DNA from: a virus
Taxonomy: Duplodnaviria; Caudoviricetes
Length of the DNA: 64,000 nucleotides
Virus record (IMG/VR): IMGVR_UViG_3300025858_000010
Span: 1 to 64,000 of that record
Reading direction: 5' to 3' (one strand)
Shown here piece by piece: positions 4,286-17,867 of the stretch. Position numbers and translations under genes: made by a program. Numbering within the stretch: the stretch's first letter is position 1; every line of letters begins with the position of its first letter. Below the pieces are notes generated by a model. The model had not been told where the DNA came from. It did no database searches and was given only the letters and a program-made list of their open reading frames with translations.

Positions 4286-6366
<2,081 letters not shown>

Positions 6367-8542: not shown

Positions 8543-8652
8543 ATAATATCTTACTTTGAACCATATATATTAAGTGGTACGATCATTAGTATATAATAAA
8601 ATATATAAAATGTTTTTTTTTTGAATATTATTTTTTAATATATAAAGTAATT

Positions 8653-10050
8653 ATGGATAAATTTAGTAATAAATACATTGGTTATTTTGATATTTTAAAA
8701 AAATCTATTGTCGGTTTTGAATTCGAATTTTATACTGACAAATCATATTATAAACTACTTGAATTATTAAACAGAGAATTATCACCAATAAAAATATGGG
8801 GGCGTAGGAAATATCATTCCGATATGGAAGTCGATGAATATAATTTTAAAATAGAACCGGATTTGAGTATGGGACCAGATGGTGTTGAATTAATAACAGG
8901 TCCAATGCCTTATAATAATGCTAAACTTATTTTATTGAAAATTTTAAGCATTTTACAAAAATATGCTAAAACGGATGATAAAACTTCTATTCACATAAAT
9001 ATATCCTTTGATAAAGACTTAACTGATAAAATATTAGATAAATTAAATAGATTAAAATTAATTCTAAATTGCGATGAAGAATTAATATATAAATATTTTC
9101 CGACAAGAAAGAACAACTTTTATGCAAAAAGCGTAAAAAAACTCATTCCATTTAAGGGATATAATTATGTTAGTGATGCTATTAATATTTTAATTGAAAA
9201 TATACAATTACCAGATACTAAATATTATGGGGTTAATATTAAAGAAGCATATAATGGTAGATTAGAGTTTAGATATATTGGAGATACTGATTATCAATTT
9301 AAATCAAGAGAAATAATTGAATTGATGGATTATTTTATTTCTTTAACATGGAACAGCATAGATGAAAAATTAGATGAAGATGATATGTCAATATTAAGAA
9401 AATATCTTGATGATAATATAAATAACTTTAAAAATTTTTCAAGACTAGAAAATTTTATTGCTGAATTTCCGACTATTCAATTGGAAATTGATAAAGAAGA
9501 TGGATTTGTAATAGTCAAATCTTATTATTCAAACATATACAGCAAGATTTACGATATAATTAAAAATATTAACAATTTAAATAACTGTATATTAAATTAC
9601 GATACAGAAACCAAAATGATGGAAATTGTGGACGCGGATTTTCATACAATTTTTGATTTAAATAATTTAGCGGTTATTGATAGCAATGCAAATGGAGGAA
9701 CATATAAAGATTGCACATTTATAAATTGCGAAATTAAAAACGCTCATATACACAATTGTAAATTCATTAGTTGTGACGTTTATAATTGTAAAATGGAAAA
9801 TAATATTGTAGATCAGACGAGTATGATAAAAAATTGTTATTTTTATGGTGGTGTCCTTGATGGCGAAATGATAGGAGGTGTTTGGAGATCTGGTAAAGTC
9901 GGAGAGTTTGGCACTTTATCCGATACAACTAAAATTGCGACAGACATGGATAGTTATTTCAATACTAAAATTGATAATGAAGAAGAACCATTAAATAAAG
10001 ATAATTTCAAATCAAAAAAAATAAATCCCTTTCAACCAAGGAAATTTTAA
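8653..10050 (+). CDS. Putative amidoligase with beta-solenoid-like C-terminus
   Basis: GFEFEF, ELITGPM, SIHINIS, KYYGVN, LEFR motifs of the phage amidoligase family. Confidence 0.7.
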   Translation: MDKFSNKYIGYFDILKKSIVGFEFEFYTDKSYYKLLELLNRELSPIKIWGRRKYHSDMEVDEYNFKIEPDLSMGPDGVELITGPMPYNNAKLILLKILSILQKYAKTDDKTSIHINISFDKDLTDKILDKLNRLKLILNCDEELIYKYFPTRKNNFYAKSVKKLIPFKGYNYVSDAINILIENIQLPDTKYYGVNIKEAYNGRLEFRYIGDTDYQFKSREIIELMDYFISLTWNSIDEKLDEDDMSILRKYLDDNINNFKNFSRLENFIAEFPTIQLEIDKEDGFVIVKSYYSNIYSKIYDIIKNINNLNNCILNYDTETKMMEIVDADFHTIFDLNNLAVIDSNANGGTYKDCTFINCEIKNAHIHNCKFISCDVYNCKMENNIVDQTSMIKNCYFYGGVLDGEMIGGVWRSGKVGEFGTLSDTTKIATDMDSYFNTKIDNEEEPLNKDNFKSKKINPFQPRKF

Positions 10051-10052
10051 TT

Positions 10053-10283
10053 ATGAACGATAATACTAAGAAAAGTAGAATAAGAAGACTTGTCAAAAAA
10101 TCAGCTTTTATTGAATTATTTGGTGGTGAATGTGAAAAATGTGGTGAAAAAGATCATTTCTTATTAAGTTTCCATCACATGGATCCTAGTAAGAAACTTT
10201 TTAATTCATCTCAATTATGGGACTGTTTGCCATCTTTTTCGGATTTTATAAATAAATTCTTTATGACAAAATCCTTAGAGTGA
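10053..10283 (+). pseudogene. Truncated HNH endonuclease
   Basis: GGECEKCG...LSFHHMDPSKK; the frame then runs into the antisense strand of the DUF4186 relic. Confidence 0.6.
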
Positions 10284-10396
10284 CTTCTTATAGTTTCAAT
10301 ACCTTTATTTTCAATATATTTCTTATCCTTATCAGATAAATGAAATTTAGATCTGAATTTTGATTTAGATAAATTATATTCTAATGAGTAATTCAT
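10211..10396 (-). pseudogene. Truncated DUF4186-family protein
   Basis: LSKSKFRSKFHLSDKDKKYIENKGIETIRSH...DGKQ resembles the DUF4186 N-half; C-half absent. Confidence 0.6.
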
Positions 10397-10539
10397 TTTT
10401 CAACATAAATATTTGTTAATCTTCTATAGACGCATTTATTTTTTCCGCCAGCATCTGGTTTAATTACCAACTTAAATTCGTATTTAGATGTGAATTCACT
10501 AAAAGTATATGCCATATCGTCTATAAATTTTCCATTTTT

Positions 10540-10656
10540 ATGAAAAACAATGTGCCTTATTCTATGCAAGATGGAGATATGGAAAAAGACCCAAATTCGG
10601 TTACAGATGCAGCAAAAGCAATCGTAAATATGTTAAAGGAACGAGGATTGATTTAA
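10540..10656 (+). CDS. Short ORF, probably the 3' remnant of a cassette
   Basis: MKNNVPYSMQDGDMEKDPNSVTDAAKAIVNMLKERGLI; stop 10 nt before the first attC-like site. Confidence 0.4.
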   Translation: MKNNVPYSMQDGDMEKDPNSVTDAAKAIVNMLKERGLI

Positions 10657-10666
10657 ATTTTATTAT

Positions 10667-10721
10667 CACTAACGGTTGAGTGTAAAAAATCGTTTTTAAT
10701 GTTTTTTACACTTTGTTATAC
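10667..10721 (+). repeat. attC-like site 1
   Basis: CACTAAC-GGTTG-AGTGTAAAAAA-loop TCGTTTTTAATG-TTTTTTACACT-TT-GTTATAC (perfect 11-bp arms). Confidence 0.8.
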
Positions 10722-10787
10722 ACAGTATTTTGTGGGAGGTTTTGGAATAAAAATTAATTCTGAATATTTATATATAAAGACAAAATT

Positions 10788-11084
10788 ATGAGTAAAGAAA
10801 TGAGAAAATACATAGATACATTCAAAAAATTTAATTTGAATGAAAATAAATCGTTAGAAATAAAATATAGAATTGTGTCAGATTATGGTCATGGTGATAA
10901 ATCATGGATTGAAAGGGATTTAACTAAAGATGAAGTTAAAGAATATTTTGTAAAATATCGTGGTTGGTCTGAACAAGATTTTGATGAAGTTGGTATTGAT
11001 TATTTTATGAATAACGATTTCACACATTACGTTGAAATTGATAACGTTAATGATGTAGAAGATTGGAATTGGGAGGATTCTTAA
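10788..11084 (+). CDS. Cassette ORF 1, hypothetical
   Basis: Flanked by GTTATACACAGTATTTT and AAAATATTGTGTATAAC; leader MSKEMR..ID.FKKF.LNE. Confidence 0.8.
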   Translation: MSKEMRKYIDTFKKFNLNENKSLEIKYRIVSDYGHGDKSWIERDLTKDEVKEYFVKYRGWSEQDFDEVGIDYFMNNDFTHYVEIDNVNDVEDWNWEDS

Positions 11085-11093
11085 AAATATTGT

Positions 11094-11147
11094 GTATAAC
11101 GGTTGCAAATATGTTGTCGTTTTAATGCAACATATTTGATGTTATAC
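11094..11147 (+). repeat. attC-like site 2
   Basis: GTATAAC-GGTTG-CAAATATGTTG-loop TCGTTTTAATG-CAACATATTTG-AT-GTTATAC. Confidence 0.85.
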
Positions 11148-11256
11148 ACAGTACGGATTATTAAGGTAGAATGTTGATACGAAAAAACGAATAAAAACTT
11201 TCTAAAAATGTGCTGTAGAAAATTAAATTCCGAATATTTATATATAAATTAAAAAC

Positions 11257-11703
11257 ATGTGTAAAGAAATGAGAGAACAAATAGATAGAGTAAAAAACTG
11301 GAAACAGTTTTTGAACGAAAATAAATTAAACGAAGATGTTGAAATTAATAAAGATTATGTCAATAATTTTTTAAATGATTTTGGTTTTTTAATTACTCTA
11401 AATTTATCACAAGTAACAAAAATGGGCATTGATTCCAACTCAACAAACGAATTAACTAATATGATGATGAATTTGAGAAAACCAATAATTAATGGGTTAA
11501 ATTATATTGAACTAACAAAAGATACTAATAGTTTATATAATAAACCAAAATTATTGTCTGAAATATTAAATAAGATAAGAGAATTTTTAATTTATATTGA
11601 ACCAAGAATAAGTAAATTCGTAAAAGATAGTGAATATAAAATTAAATGGTTAGAAAAAATAGAAGATTTAAAAAATAGATATAAAAATATTATTTCTAAA
11701 TAG
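11257..11703 (+). CDS. Cassette ORF 2, hypothetical
   Basis: Flanked by GTTATACACAGTAC and GTATTGTGTATAAC; leader MCKEMR..ID.VKNWKQFLNE. Confidence 0.8.
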   Translation: MCKEMREQIDRVKNWKQFLNENKLNEDVEINKDYVNNFLNDFGFLITLNLSQVTKMGIDSNSTNELTNMMMNLRKPIINGLNYIELTKDTNSLYNKPKLLSEILNKIREFLIYIEPRISKFVKDSEYKIKWLEKIEDLKNRYKNIISK

Positions 11704-11762
11704 GGAGATTTTTAAAAAGTTTTTTACACAGAACTATAATTGAAATGATAATGTAGTATTGT

Positions 11763-11894
11763 GTATAACGTTTCTCAGATATATTTAGTTCTGAGATTTA
11801 ATATATAAACTTAAAATAACGAACAAAATTATGGAAAAGAACAGAATTAAGAGATTTAACGAAAACTCAGAATTGAATATATCTGATGTTATGA
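11763..11894 (+). repeat. attC-like site 3 (long; loop holds a promoter and start codon)
   Basis: GTATAAC...TCAGATATATTTAGTTCTGAG (11775-11795) pairs with CTCAGAATTGAATATATCTGA (11866-11886), then T-GTTATGA. Confidence 0.8.
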
Positions 11895-12046
11895 AACGTA
11901 TTAACGACTTAAAAGATGAATATGAAAGAATACGAAATTATGAATATGATAAGTATGATGATGAATGGGAAGCAATGGATAGAAAAAGAAGTATAGAAAC
12001 GGTTTTCTATTTATTGAATATAGATTTTAATGAGTTTGATAGATAA
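11831..12046 (+). CDS. Cassette ORF 3; first 20 aa are encoded by attC-like site 3
   Basis: MEKNRIKRFNENSELNISDV|MKRIN...; cassette ends GTTATGAAACGTATTA / TAATATGTTTCATAAC. Confidence 0.75.
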   Translation: MEKNRIKRFNENSELNISDVMKRINDLKDEYERIRNYEYDKYDDEWEAMDRKRSIETVFYLLNIDFNEFDR

Positions 12047-12052
12047 TATGTT

Positions 12053-12090
12053 TCATAACGTATGCGTATCTTTACAAGTAGAGATATTTT
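12053..12090 (+). repeat. Degenerate attC-like site 4 (left half only)
   Basis: TCATAAC followed by a TATCTTTAC/GTAGAGATA hairpin; no properly spaced GTT. Confidence 0.45.
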
Positions 12091-12411
12091 TTAAAAAATG
12101 AAATTTTTAAATACAGTGAACATGAAAAAAAATTGATGAGGATGAAAAAAATTGATTATACTAATTTTTGTGATGCTATTGCTGAAATTGCTAAACAACT
12201 TTTAAGCGCACTGATGAAAAATCGTTATTGTGAAAAAAAAAAGGATTATGCCATACGTGCCACAATAAGATAAAAGTAAAGAGAAATGGGATATACTAAA
12301 CAAGGACGAGAATATTATGATAGAATGAAATGAAAAAAAAAATTAAATAAAAAGTAGACATTTAATTCAAAAACACAAATCCATATTTTACTATATGGAT
12401 TTATGAAACTA

Positions 12412-13194
12412 TCATTTTAGAATATTTTTTAATTCACAAATCAATGAAAAAACATGAAGTGGAGGATCAGTTGTTGTTTCAAATTCGGCATTATATATCT
12501 TATTTAATTCTAATAATTTGAAACCTTTTTCATCAATTATTTCTTTATGATTATTTATTAGATATTGATAAAATGGTCTCCCCAAAATATCAATTAATGT
12601 TTTCGGTTGATTGACCCAATTATCCATAACAAAATAAAAATTTTCTGAAAAATTGTTATTTTTGTTTAAAATAAAATCAAATATGTCTTTGTAGTTACCT
12701 TTTATTGATATGTTCTGATCTTCTGTTATATAAATTGTTTGTAAATCTTGAATAGATAATCTAAGATCTGGAAAATTTGTATCTATAATTTTTCTTATAA
12801 TATTATCATCTACTGTCATTTTTGAATGTTTAACAACACTCATTAAATATTTGTAATATCCATTCAATAAAAAATTTTTCTCGTCATCATTTATTGGAGT
12901 AAAACATATCTTATTAAATCTTGATAACAAAGGACCAATTACTTTAGATATGTCATTCATAGATATAATAAACCTAACTCTATAATCATATTTTTCTACA
13001 AAACCCTTAAATCCGTCTTGAAATTCTGGACTAGCTTTTTCGAATTCTTCCAAATAAACATATTTCATTTTGTCATCTGTTTTGACAAGAGGTGAAGGCA
13101 TGGAATCACAAAAATCCAACATTTTCTCTCGTAAAACATTTATACCGTTATCTATGTTGGCGTTTATTTTCATTGAACATTTATCTTTAAGCAA
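12412..13194 (-). pseudogene. Clamp loader AAA+ subunit (T4 gp44/RFC-like), lacking the N-terminus and Walker A
   Basis: KINA..GINVLRE, YLEEFE (Walker B), RFIISMN, LLSRF, FPDLR; the upstream frame gives ...NDISLAEILL with no GKT. Confidence 0.65.
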
Positions 13195-13319
13195 AATTTC
13201 AGCCAGCGAAATATCATTTAAAAATAACTGAAATTCATAATTCTTTTTGTCAATTACAAATCTTTTATTTTCATTTGTGAAATCTAATCTGGTTTTAATA
13301 TTTGAATTTTATTTGCAAG

Positions 13320-13327
13320 CAAAGATA
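13320..13327 (-). promoter_or_regulatory. Bacteroidota-type sigma-A -7 box
   Basis: TATCTTTG (TAnnTTTG) in an intergenic region. Confidence 0.5.
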
Positions 13328-13351
13328 ATAAAAAAATGTAATAATAAAAAA

Positions 13352-13624
13352 TTAAATTTTCTTTTCTTTTAAAAACTGAAAAAATTCTTCAAATGTTATA
13401 CTTGTGAAATCAAAATCACAATCATTTGGAATTATTATATAATCAAAAATTTGTTTATATCTATCGTCATTGTGATCATCACACCATTCAAACATAAGAT
13501 AATTTAAAGCTTCAAGATGAGGAGATCTTGTTTTTGGCATAAGATTATCATTAAATCTCCTCAGCTTGAAGTTTTTAGATTTATATTGTAATAGTATGCG
13601 ATCGTAATATTCGTGAAGGTTCAT
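13352..13624 (-). CDS. Hypothetical protein
   Basis: ORF co-oriented with neighbours. Confidence 0.55.
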   Translation of the reverse strand: MNLHEYYDRILLQYKSKNFKLRRFNDNLMPKTRSPHLEALNYLMFEWCDDHNDDRYKQIFDYIIIPNDCDFDFTSITFEEFFQFLKEKKI

Positions 13625-14309: not shown

Positions 14310-17300
14310 TTATTGTTTTTTAATTTTAATCGTGTGAACTTTGATGAATTTTATTTCATCGATATCCAAATTAAAATATTTGTAAATTTTATCTTCATTA
14401 TCCACTATATTTAAATCCACTTTTGGAATTCTGTTCAAAACTGGGTTTGCGAATCTGCCGTTTCTATAAATGTTATTTATAAAAACCACTATGTTTGATT
14501 TTAAAAATATTCTTAATTTTTCACAATCTTGAACATTTTCCATTTTATAATAACCAGATTGTTTCCCAACACCTTTATCAATAGATACTTCCGTAAAATG
14601 TTCGACATTATCATTATCGAAATCATTTATGTATGATGATATTAATTTAATCAAGTTTGCCCCATTAAAAGGTTCTTTAGAATATACCAGTCTTCTAGAT
14701 TTTTCAGAAGAATAAAATAAAGGAAATTTATATTCATCATTTTTTTCAAATGAAACAAATTTAGTATTTATAGAATGATTTGTCCCATTGTGAAATTCAA
14801 AAACACCATTTTTAAATATTTTATTCAAAATAATGAAAAGTTCATTATTTATAACATCAGCAGATAAAGGCAACAAATCTAAATCACTTATATTAATTTT
14901 AGATTTTCCTAATTTTGTTACTATTGTTGTTTCTTTTTGATATTCTTTATTTTGTAATAAAAAATAACTAAAAGTGTTATCTATTTTAAAATATTTCGAA
15001 CAATCATTCATATTAATGAACAATAAATTATATTTTTTAAATCTTCCAAAATCAGTTTTATTACCTGCCCACGTATTTGGAACAACATATAATAAATATC
15101 CATTAATATTAAAATATTTTATAGATTTATAAATAAATTTTTTCCACAGTCCACTTTCACCGCCTTGACCTCCCCCTATTCCACCTTCAGAATTATACGG
15201 TGGATTAGTTAATATCAAATCGAATTTTTCGATACCCCATTCTTTCATTTTATTATCAAATCCATCGTCTAAAAATGAACCTCTATGCCATTTCATTTCT
15301 TTATATTCGTTATTCGGATCAAATAATTGAAGATAAATGAACATGTTTTTCGGTTGTAATTCACAAACATGAATAATTTTCTCAATAATATGTTTATATC
15401 TCAAGTTTTCATCTTTCTGCCATGATTCAAGTCCTTTCATAAATCTTTGAATAGCCACACAAACAAATACTCCAGACCCATTGCTTGGTTCTAAAACTTT
15501 AGCATAGGGATTACTCCAAAATTCTACTGGAATAGTATCAAGCATTTCATTGACTAATTTCGCTGGAGTCTGAACTTCACCTAGCAACTTTTTCTCGATT
15601 TTCGAAACCCCCACGTAGCTCTCAATTAATTCTAATACTTTTTCAATATTAATCACTCTATCGTTCTTATTTTCTGTATATATCAATTTGCGAAATTTCG
15701 TATTAAAAGTCAATATCCTATCATTTAATAATTCGATATTGATATAATTTCTATAAACAAAATCTGCTGTCGCAAAATTAATATTTAAATGCCCATCAAG
15801 CGATAAAAATTCAACAAAATTCTTTTCTCTTTCAGCATCGCTATGAATATAATCCAAACAATCGTTTAAATTATCTATCTTATAGTCACAACAAATAGAA
15901 AGAAGAGGAGTTTTACCTAAAATATATACTACATCCTCAAATGCTAATTTTTTATCACTTTCTACTATATTTCTATCTCTTTTTTCTCTTAAAGTTTGTT
16001 TAGTTTTTCCTTTTTCAATGTCATTATCATTAACACGGACATTTATAGATCCCTTATCGATTTCACCACCAATTTTCCCCATCATTTCTAATAATAATAG
16101 ATAATCATTATCTACTTCATCTTTACGAATTAAATAATTACCAAAGAAATTTCTAGATTTAATATCCATTATGTCAACAATTTTATCTTTAAATCCTTGA
16201 AGATCAATGGAACTGAACTTACCATCTTCATTGCATTCAAAAATGCTCAACGAGTCGAAAAATTCAACATATCTTTCTTCCAGAGATTTATTACCACTAA
16301 TATAATTGACTTCAATAAATTCTTTAAAGATTTTAAAGGTTCTATATGGAGTAAAATCAATCACACTGCAATTAGTTTTACCTTTCATTGGGCTTTGACA
16401 GCGATAACTGGCTTGAATATATTCGTCCATAGATGCCCAATCATTCATAAACATCACCATATCACATTTTCTCAAAGTAATACCAGTAGTTAATTGACGA
16501 TTAGCAATGACAATAGATTTCTTTCCGTCTCTTGGAATAAACTCATTTTTAGTTTTCCATAACAAATCAGCAGAGTTTGTATTGACTTCACTATTAGTAT
16601 AATGAATATTATAATTATTTCTATAAAAATCTATATTCATTAAAACATCTACCAGAAGTGGTTGACATTCATTATTTTGAACAAACATTAAGATTGAATC
16701 GGCATTCAATTTTTTGAGAGGCATATTGATGTTGTTTCCATAAAAACCAGCAATCCATTTGAAAAATATTTCAATATCATTTTTATATTTCAATTTTCCA
16801 TCTTCAACTTGAAAAAATTTATTCCAATTGAAAAATTCTTCATCCTTATAATACTGCATTAATGACTGTATAGTTTTTGAAGGATTATATAAATAAAAAG
16901 AAATATCAGGAAGAGTATAGATTTCTGGATATAATTTTTTAAATTTCTTTTCGTCAGAAATACTATATGTATGAGTATCACATGGGAGAAATGTTCCTCG
17001 TAAAAGATTTCTAGTTGGTGTAGCTGATAAACCAAGTAATCTATCATAATTTAAATGACCTAGAAGTTTATCAGTTAATTCTGATTCTTTTCCGCGATGA
17101 CATTCGTCCACAATGATCAAATCCCATTTTATTCCGCGAAGAATTTTGAATTTTTCTTTAAGCATCGGAAGATCTGAATCTGAAATTTTTCCTTTAGCAT
17201 CCTGAAAAGATACCATAACGAAATTTGGTCTTTCGTCAAACATAATTTTTTCAGTAATCGTGTCAGAACAAACATTTATAATATCATAATCTAATCCATA

Positions 17301-17867
17301 AATATTTAAAGCTCCACTTTGCCATTGTCCGTTTAAAACTGGATAGTTAGTAAAAAGAAGAACATTTTTATATTTTTTATCTTTTAATAATTGATAACAA
17401 ATATAAGTTTTTCCAGATCTTGGTTTATGATTCAATAAAACATTACGAGAACCATTATCAAATCTATCACAAATAAAATTATAGGCATCTAGTTGATGTG
17501 GCATAAGTTGCAGTCTCATTTTAAAAGCGTCTGGATCAACTAAAATGGCTTTAATGGCTGTCTTAATATCATCAATGGTGATATCGTAGAACCATTCGCG
17601 ATCTTTATCAAGACGAAGCCTTTTTCCTCTGTCGTCAAAATATTTATGAAGTTTATTTTCTAATTCTTTTGGTGTAATATTGTATCCATTAACAGAAAAT
17701 GTCATTAATAATCGTAAAGGTTCTGGAACAGCAGTAACATCTTGTTCTAAAACTCTTTCGTCGAAGATTCTATTGGTAGATCCTATTTTATACCAATTTT
17801 TTTGAATATAAGTGTCAGTGGAATAAACATAAATTCCATACCCAAATCCATTATAATTTTCCATCAT
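14310..17867 (-). CDS. Single-chain restriction-modification-like enzyme: T5orf172/GIY-YIG nuclease + SF2 (ResIII-like) helicase + N6-adenine methyltransferase
   Basis: GIYVY..YKIGST..R..DREWF; PRSGKT, DECH, LSATP, QASYR; EPSNGSG, TNPPY. Confidence 0.8.
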   Translation of the reverse strand: MMENYNGFGYGIYVYSTDTYIQKNWYKIGSTNRIFDERVLEQDVTAVPEPLRLLMTFSVNGYNITPKELENKLHKYFDDRGKRLRLDKDREWFYDITIDDIKTAIKAILVDPDAFKMRLQLMPHQLDAYNFICDRFDNGSRNVLLNHKPRSGKTYICYQLLKDKKYKNVLLFTNYPVLNGQWQSGALNIYGLDYDIINVCSDTITEKIMFDERPNFVMVSFQDAKGKISDSDLPMLKEKFKILRGIKWDLIIVDECHRGKESELTDKLLGHLNYDRLLGLSATPTRNLLRGTFLPCDTHTYSISDEKKFKKLYPEIYTLPDISFYLYNPSKTIQSLMQYYKDEEFFNWNKFFQVEDGKLKYKNDIEIFFKWIAGFYGNNINMPLKKLNADSILMFVQNNECQPLLVDVLMNIDFYRNNYNIHYTNSEVNTNSADLLWKTKNEFIPRDGKKSIVIANRQLTTGITLRKCDMVMFMNDWASMDEYIQASYRCQSPMKGKTNCSVIDFTPYRTFKIFKEFIEVNYISGNKSLEERYVEFFDSLSIFECNEDGKFSSIDLQGFKDKIVDIMDIKSRNFFGNYLIRKDEVDNDYLLLLEMMGKIGGEIDKGSINVRVNDNDIEKGKTKQTLREKRDRNIVESDKKLAFEDVVYILGKTPLLSICCDYKIDNLNDCLDYIHSDAEREKNFVEFLSLDGHLNINFATADFVYRNYINIELLNDRILTFNTKFRKLIYTENKNDRVINIEKVLELIESYVGVSKIEKKLLGEVQTPAKLVNEMLDTIPVEFWSNPYAKVLEPSNGSGVFVCVAIQRFMKGLESWQKDENLRYKHIIEKIIHVCELQPKNMFIYLQLFDPNNEYKEMKWHRGSFLDDGFDNKMKEWGIEKFDLILTNPPYNSEGGIGGGQGGESGLWKKFIYKSIKYFNINGYLLYVVPNTWAGNKTDFGRFKKYNLLFINMNDCSKYFKIDNTFSYFLLQNKEYQKETTIVTKLGKSKINISDLDLLPLSADVINNELFIILNKIFKNGVFEFHNGTNHSINTKFVSFEKNDEYKFPLFYSSEKSRRLVYSKEPFNGANLIKLISSYINDFDNDNVEHFTEVSIDKGVGKQSGYYKMENVQDCEKLRIFLKSNIVVFINNIYRNGRFANPVLNRIPKVDLNIVDNEDKIYKYFNLDIDEIKFIKVHTIKIKKQ

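Follow-up and report, generated by a model that had tools for sequence, protein, structure and literature searches.

The window analysed here, a stretch of 64,000 nucleotides, is the first 64 kb of one phage record (IMG/VR IMGVR_UViG_3300025858_000010; Caudoviricetes, 243,112 bp, 26% G+C). At 10550-12175 on its plus strand it contains an array of three complete and one truncated unit with co-oriented open reading frames (ORFs), and each unit follows the plan hairpin site, GTTA box, promoter-like module, small ORF and TAAC box. The hairpins resemble the attC recombination sites of integrons, and we found that their stems covary, that copies of the units lie between different neighbours in other genomes, and that related arrays are linked to a tyrosine recombinase gene. 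Taking all the results together, we think that the locus is probably the decayed, recombinase-less end of an integron-like cassette platform whose units would be moved by a short Xer-like tyrosine recombinase. It belongs to a large, apparently undescribed family of integron-like arrays in Bacteroidota phages; within the literature searched, no paper was found that describes the site family, its recombinase or the unit structure.

Hairpin sites and their folded strand

The coordinates of the sites and units are collected in table 1. Sites 1 and 2 have GGTTG and the loop TCGTTTT(T)AATG in common, while their arms are unlike at most positions and yet fully paired. The covariance model R1 scored site 1 at 68.4 bits (E 8e-13) and site 2 at 71.2 bits (E 2e-13). 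In site 3, the arms (11775-11799 and 11862-11886) are 88% complementary, and the loop contains TTAATATATAAA together with the start codon of ORF3 (ATG at 11831). The boxes join the two ends of each unit to one another, not to the neighbouring site: 10715-10731 pairs with 11084-11100 in unit 1 (17 bp), 11141-11154 with 11756-11769 in unit 2 (14 bp), and 11888-11903 with 12044-12059 in unit 3 (16 bp), with a G.T pair at position 11 in all three. The own flanks of the hybrid sites 1 and 3 pair across just 4-5 bp. Genome-wide, only five GTTA.../...TAAC pairs of at least 14 bp were found, four of them in this locus and the fifth in low-complexity sequence. Sites 1-3 are the only hairpin sites of this class in the whole genome. 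Three attC-like sites lie within 1.3 kb with no integrase present, which may amount to a cluster of attC sites lacking integron integrases (CALIN). The sites were not terminator-like in a terminator scan, and Rfam gave no relevant match for the window region 9500-13000 at E up to 5. The sequence of the truncated unit 0 recurs in contigs L182 and L185 as the 3' end of an intact 81-aa ORF behind a leader hairpin, with the match starting at 10550.

Table 1. Sites, units and array-end features of the cassette locus (positions in the window)
Feature	Position	Strand	Description
Unit 0, truncated	10550-10673	+	Final 107 nt of cassette ORF (stop 10654-10656); 3' box ending TAAC
Site 1, attC-like hairpin	10670-10718	+	TAAC, GGTTG, 11-nt arm, loop TCGTTTTTAATG, arm 2, TT, GTTA
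Unit 1	10674-11100	+	Hairpin core; 5' box 10715-10731; ORF 10788-11084, 98 aa; 3' box 11084-11100
Site 2, attC-like hairpin	11097-11144	+	Plan of site 1, loop TCGTTTTAATG, own perfectly paired covarying arm
Unit 2	11101-11769	+	Hairpin core; 5' box 11141-11154; ORF 11257-11703, 148 aa; 3' box 11756-11769
Site 3, long attC-like hairpin	11766-11891	+	TAAC, GTTTC, 25-nt arms, 62-nt loop, T, GTTA
Unit 3	11770-12059	+	Leader hairpin; 5' box 11888-11903; ORF 11831-12046, 71 aa; 3' box 12044-12059
attI-like remnant (putative)	12056-12090	+	30 nt past TAAC align with conserved pre-recombinase sequence of nine relatives; diverged
11-codon stub	12142-12174	+	MKKIDYTNFCD; resembles N-terminus of array-linked recombinase

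The same architecture was found far beyond this phage. A scan of IMG/VR for the pattern TAACGGTTG followed by eleven free bases and TCGTTTT gave 115 loci, in which 88 sites combined the same loop with a stem that was complementary but for 2 mismatches at most; nearly all of them also had GTTA. Among 46 distinct sites, TAAC and GTTA were invariant (46/46), and the 12-bp stem was 96.9% paired with compensatory changes in 11 of its 12 pairs; the observed covariation score was reached by none of 500 shuffles. The three bases outside TAAC and GTTA were paired in only 60% of cases, as is expected of hybrid sites. The internal loop is asymmetric (4 nt vs. 1 nt), and the sites are between 48 and about 140 nt long. 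Of 70 unique sites, most show a pairing of 4-7 bp between their own flanks; in most, the right flank finds its partner, with 10-26 bp of pairing, in a box that ends in TAAC and lies 160-700 nt downstream. Arrays elsewhere comprise up to 10-11 consecutive units, and a median of 78% of each cassette is one ORF. Their spacers come in lengths of 40, about 72, 80, 107, 118 and 130 nt, and every one of these classes forms hairpins. Long spacers resemble site 3 in that the start codon and the N-terminal leader lie within the loop and the 3' arm, and the class of about 118 nt, to which site 3 corresponds, is common in other arrays. On the host side, the covariance model detected sites in 44 of 151 Flavobacteriaceae genomes, several with the identical loop. 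The strict pattern gave only 7 matches over 185,579 species genomes, mostly on short phage-like contigs in metagenome-assembled genomes, and it took the covariance model to find chromosomal sites. Two of the arrays contain "empty cassettes", one in a composite spacer (L084) and one just before the recombinase (L132), which consist of GTTA, 5 bases, TCGTTTTAATG, the complementary 5 bases and TAAC; here, the same loop as at the tip of the inter-unit hairpins directly closes the two boxes.

An initial annotation of the window, made from its letters, had placed sites 1-3 at the positions confirmed here. It had also described the covarying arms of sites 1 and 2, the pairing of each cassette's start with its own end and the hybrid status of sites 1 and 3, and all three hold, the own-end pairing also in about 200 cassettes elsewhere. 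The covariance-model scan that it had proposed yielded further sites in Flavobacteriaceae and none further in this genome. Its array of three units was right as far as it went, but it had missed unit 0 and the end of the array at 12059 without a fourth hairpin.

Considering that wobble pairs can tell the two strands apart, the end pairing of 211 oriented cassettes was re-scored in a strand-neutral way. On the ORF-sense strand, G.T and T.G mismatches amounted to 151, compared with 21 A.C and C.A mismatches, which would be wobble pairs on the opposite strand. The bias was kept in a subset controlling for detection bias (44 vs. 11), and the plus strand folded better than the minus strand at all three sites of the window. 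Therefore, the folded strand is the ORF-sense strand, as DNA or as RNA. Moreover, cassette ORFs and the asymmetric hairpin core point the same way in 70 cases and opposite ways in 2. The integron reading of the initial annotation is not supported in this respect: the ORFs sit on the folded strand and are inverted relative to classical integrons.

Unit boundaries, mobility and cargo

Contigs from four other studies were aligned onto positions 9000-13600. Unit 1 or unit 2 was present in these contigs with 0-1 differences, and the sequences became unlike from 11096-11101 and from 11769-11771. In other samples, both units were found between different neighbours at 98.6-100% identity. Six other contigs carried unit 1 (99.2-99.8% identity) in front of at least four different downstream neighbours or spacers, with matches ending at 11100-11105; in L184, the identity of unit 1 stops directly after the C of TAAC. 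The exact 148-aa protein of unit 2 was encoded on contigs representing at least three other neighbourhoods. Its cassette was 628/629 identical in L169, the match running from 11086-11095 to 11770, with at least three different neighbours on each side, and in L175 the identity starts at the preceding TAAC box and leaves hairpin 2 intact. Copies of unit 2 lose identity after TAAC-G, where a diverged leader hairpin or unrelated spacer follows. Thus, the identity of unit 1 and unit 2 copies breaks within TAAC(G) at both ends, at a resolution of 5-6 nt and with L184 as the one exception. In another contig, L174:287-347 differs from window positions 11086-11144 by a double change of a stem pair from G-C to A-T and by a few single changes outside the stem, next to a cassette 2 of 98.7% identity; by alignment, this looks like a recent compensatory change inside one unit lineage.

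Independent cassettes behaved in a similar way. Six cassette pairs common to different IMG/VR contexts kept 36-48 nt upstream (44-48 nt in five of them), and 44-48 nt is what TAAC and the 40-nt core add up to; in four of these pairs, identity was lost 0-5 nt past the cassette's own TAAC. An ORF extended through the GTTA box in 25 of the 96 cassettes and through the TAAC box in only 2 of 93. The unit boundaries and the continuity of ORFs across GTTA thus indicate that the mobile unit runs from the hairpin through the GTTA box and the ORF to the TAAC box, with exchange in TAAC(G), and the alignments suggest that the hairpin usually moves with the downstream ORF. The exchange box would be the 5' box of the folded strand, which by analogy with integrons would correspond to AA|C cleavage of the attC bottom strand. 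The initial annotation had put the exchange at G|TT, in the opposite box, but identity breaks at TAAC, which on the ORF-sense strand lies 5' of the hairpin. Site 3, together with its promoter and leader, belongs to unit 3 and is no donor to a foreign cassette. Near-identical units 1 and 2 do lie between different neighbours, and the annotation's view of mobile cassettes with structure-defined sites instead of plain terminators agrees with this and with the terminator scan.

The repeats could also be read as invertible, phase-variable segments flipped by a tyrosine recombinase, considering that the segments between the inverted repeats (10-26 bp) measure 100-700 bp, a size range typical of the invertible promoters of Bacteroidota. 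We rejected this reading because of the 70 to 2 orientation of ORFs with the asymmetric core. The same unit also lies between different neighbours instead of being flipped in place, and no reads with both orientations of a unit at one locus were seen in the comparison on 9000-13600. Such inversion is highly improbable.

As to cargo, Pfam assigned no family to the three cassette proteins. An assignment of ORF2 to DUF7834 was discarded, as there was one weak sub-threshold match only; ORF2 has 141 unnamed relatives in metagenomes. The leader M-x-K-E-M-R-x-x-I-D begins only ORF1 (MSKEMRKYID...) and ORF2 (MCKEMREQID...) in this genome, and other arrays have it in front of nine different protein bodies. 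Since so many bodies stand under one leader, the leader is, as far as the sequences tell, a portable module of the cassette family; one might guess that it acts as a sorting signal or a protease-cleaved signal. The motif TTAATATATAAA has 17 copies in the genome (e.g., at 8635, 11798, 64097 and 97161), compared with 3.3 in shuffled versions, and most of them stand 4-34 nt ahead of an ATG. It is promoter-like, a candidate phage promoter motif. Unit 1 has the promoter-like TATTTATATATAAA at 10765-10778 and unit 2 a promoter-like motif at 11235-11248; sigma-70 promoter scanning gave matches at chance level. In the RNA runs X15-X20, less than 0.12 of the sequence words were present. The 5' modules (promoter-like motif and leader) and a 3' module at 11708-11771 are common to many cassettes at high depth. 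This 3' module makes up the final 64 nt of cassette 2. In four metagenomes it is a repeat of high depth (up to 82) and is joined to many different cassette bodies; with the shared promoter/leader module, it frames a variable ORF body.

Shared modules of this kind give some weight to another explanation, in which the hairpins and end pairings act in RNA (processing, termination or mRNA stability) and the shuffling is due to homologous recombination, for which the conserved hairpins and the 5' and 3' modules would be the sites. It would account for wobble pairs on the transcribed strand, for hairpins placed between co-oriented ORFs or at their start, and for a swap on the GTTA side in L184; a precedent exists in the PeSL (promoter and stem-loop) cassettes of T4-type phages (PMC2839356). 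Nevertheless, the identity breaks within the 5-6 nt of TAAC(G) with unrelated sequence beyond, which is too short for homologous exchange and makes such exchange an unlikely fit. The sites are neither terminator-like nor matched by an Rfam family, and the arrays of relatives end in a dedicated recombinase and a conserved attI-like site. We therefore regard the RNA explanation as rather unlikely.

The array-linked recombinase and the array end

A search for a tyrosine recombinase, suggested in the initial annotation, succeeded in the relatives, where the enzyme and an attI-like site stand beside the array. The enzyme was encoded in 14 of the 29 IMG/VR records with arrays, which are mostly fragments, and always came from a single family of about 267 aa. 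In at least nine records, 0.4-0.8 kb separate the gene from the array, and in 10 of 10 intact cases it has the same orientation as the cassette ORFs. Its ATG follows the last TAAC by 45-65 nt in 10 of 10 intact relatives, behind a conserved sequence of the form TAAC, TAT-N-ATATAT ... CAAGT, which we read as a putative attI analogue. Viewed on the opposite strand, the order is recombinase, attI-like site, G|TTA and then cassettes, as in integrons. Two complete jumbo relatives (G022 and G023) have the sites without the recombinase, which suggests that orphan arrays are common. In Flavobacteriaceae, a homologue of the recombinase lay within about 1.5 kb in 3 of 20 loci fetched.

Every family match of the recombinase was below its cut-off. 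The best was NF040815 XerA, at 178-184 bits against a cut-off of 220; the integron integrase family TIGR02249 gave 145-151 bits (cut-off 265) and matched only up to profile position 205. The recombinase aligned to IntI4 (2a3v) only across residues 18-183, and its closest solved structure was the Pyrococcus Xer-like protein 4a8e. Because the match ends at profile position 205 and at IntI4 residue 183, the IntI insert is missing. Hence the integron integrase invoked by the initial annotation gives way to a short Xer-like recombinase without the IntI-specific insert.

This linkage also bears on the idea that the units are IS200/IS605-type single-strand elements, or gene-less derivatives of them, inserted 3' of TAAC and mobilised by a Y1 HUH transposase. 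Each unit does start just past TAAC, has a hairpin near its left end and ends in TAAC, so that the target would be regenerated. However, the transposase family PF01797 is absent from this genome and was found in just 2 of the 30 records with arrays, where it lies far away from them; the long pairing of unit ends is foreign to IS200/IS605 elements, and the linked enzyme is a tyrosine recombinase. We disfavour this reading, since the Y1 transposase is not linked to the arrays, and give it very little credence.

In the 243-kb genome of the present phage, searches with PF00589 and tblastn found no tyrosine recombinase, so that the statement of the initial annotation for the window extends to the whole genome. 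The best tblastn match (E 0.45) had an internal stop and was dismissed as chance. No hairpin follows the last TAAC (12056-12059), and the region there does not fold; it holds instead the putative attI-like remnant and the stub of table 1. The recombinases of relatives begin MKK(T/L/I)DYY(E/K)IC, and the stub ORF begins MKKIDYTNFC. This pattern, picked after the alignment, occurs once in six frames of the genome and in none of 20 shuffled genomes. These features are suggestive of a platform that has lost its recombinase gene through a deletion beyond codon 11.

The region as a whole varies between strains. Unit 0 is cut at 10550 on its upstream side. A strain in run X3 is identical over 9125-10553 and has 487 unrelated bases in place of 10554-13303, a stretch that holds the array and a 260-aa minus-strand gene. 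The 735-kb relative LR756501 has the flanking 465-aa gene at 78% identity and no array beside it, a synteny that shows only that the array is accessory; no relatives of the 465-aa gene were found in IMG/VR. The truncation of unit 0, the replacement in X3 and the arrayless LR756501 together indicate, at the level of sequence comparison, that the array region is accessory. The stretch at 10053-10569, immediately before the array, is a patch of gene fragments and truncates unit 0 at 10550. One of its ORFs (76 aa) has a CxxC ... HH motif and resembles a truncated HNH endonuclease; it is followed by two minus-strand ORFs, the first of which is annotated as DUF4186 in the identical contig L177.

Two other minus-strand genes of the window were noted. 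The 1185-aa protein encoded at 14310-17867 has an identical copy in L167 with T5orf172, ResIII helicase and Eco57I-type methyltransferase domains, so that it is a large fused nuclease/helicase/methylase-like gene. The 397-aa ORF at 5143-6336 reads on inspection like adenylosuccinate synthetase (purA) and may be an auxiliary metabolic gene.

Proposed mechanism and known systems

According to the explanation that we prefer, the two boxes and the hairpin of a free circular unit would form one long imperfect palindrome, and in the array every site is a hybrid of two units. Units would be inserted and excised by the short Xer-like tyrosine recombinase, which related phages encode directly after the last TAAC, behind the attI-like site. 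Its substrate would be a folded single strand, with exchange within the TAAC box of the ORF-sense strand, comparable to AA|C cleavage of the attC bottom strand, and circles as probable intermediates. As the enzyme has been lost from this phage, its three units would need a recombinase supplied in trans and would be mobile only with one from a co-infecting phage or host. Of the phage cassette shuffling first proposed for this window, the mobile cassettes and the structure-defined sites are retained; the exchange point, the type of enzyme and the ownership of the hairpins are changed.

Several observations weigh against this mechanism, beginning with the missing recombinase of the phage itself. 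The wobble bias on the sense strand is equally compatible with RNA structure. In L184, cassette 1 stands behind a different upstream hairpin, which could be explained by homologous exchange in the shared 5' module. Among the metagenome contigs aligned onto 9000-13600, no circle or excision junction was seen, although the initial annotation had expected circles. The sole back-joint, of 11765 to 10670 in run X3, was not counted, because, besides a circle, it may equally well reflect a different array, with the common core standing after a cassette that carries the common 3' module. The recombinase of the relatives is without the IntI insert, and work by Escudero in 2016 reportedly found that IntI needs this insert for attC recombination. 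Finally, P12002L_attC1 belongs to this class of sites and was not recombined by IntI1, in contrast to the neighbouring attC2 (PMC9892861).

In a broader sense, the chances seem to us about even that these arrays are a separate integron analogue of Bacteroidota phages and some host chromosomes, in which a minimal Xer-like recombinase acts on folded sense-strand hairpins and moves self-expressed single-gene units, some with a portable N-terminal leader, between viral genomes; it might be convergent or a relative of the integron ancestor. If the mechanism holds, gene capture of the integron type is not limited to bacteria with IntI, and virulent and jumbo phages own a platform for trading small accessory genes, probably for anti-defence or injected proteins. 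Hairpin recombination would then proceed without a domain thought essential, which bears on the evolution of integron integrases from Xer-like ancestors, and a compact structure-specific recombinase would be at hand for engineering. The rule of GTTA box, TAAC box and hairpin also offers a way to annotate hundreds of unexplained small-ORF regions in phage metagenomes.

Among known systems, one site of this class has already been published. Qi et al. (2023) reported 17 CALINs in phages (PMC9892861), and an oligonucleotide in their Table S3, P12002L_attC1 of Polaribacter phage P12002L, has the same plan as our sites and the identical loop TCGTTTTAATG. There it is treated as part of a small CALIN with two predicted attC sites, and no family, recombinase, attI-like site or unit boundaries were described (PMC9892861). 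We found further TAAC...GTTA hairpins in phage P12002L, beside its methyltransferase genes and on their sense strand. The PeSL cassettes of T4-type phages (PMC2839356, PMC4122927) are likewise small accessory genes flanked by promoter and stem-loop modules and shuffled among related phages, but PeSLs are reportedly direct repeats that act via homology. By contrast, breakpoints in a 5-nt box, complementary unit ends and a linked site-specific recombinase were found here. The archaeal XerA and the XerC/D recombinases are similar in the enzyme, as is seen from the best family match and the closest structure (4a8e); unlike dif-like duplex sites, the sites here are hairpins with variable arms.

Finally, the arrays share several features with classical integrons and CALINs. 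In both, there is one ORF per unit, array sites are hybrid and orphan arrays exist. Sites are defined by structure, with invariant AAC/GTT boxes, an unpaired spacer and a variable terminal stem-loop (48-140 nt), so that the attC architecture is present; no extrahelical bases were identified. Exchange would fall in the AAC box of the folded strand, with breaks within TAAC(G) except in L184, and in relatives a recombinase gene and a putative attI-like site stand at one array end. There are also differences. The relatives' recombinase is Xer-like, about 267 aa long and without the IntI insert, and is thus not an IntI integrase; box pairing extends to 10-26 bp, and the loop and 5' spacer of the short class are conserved. 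Moreover, each hairpin lies upstream of its own ORF. Classical cassettes are mostly promoterless, have the ORF on the attC top strand and depend on a common promoter; here, the ORFs are on the folded (bottom-equivalent) strand with promoter-like modules of their own, so that no common promoter is implied, and the carriers are mainly phages.

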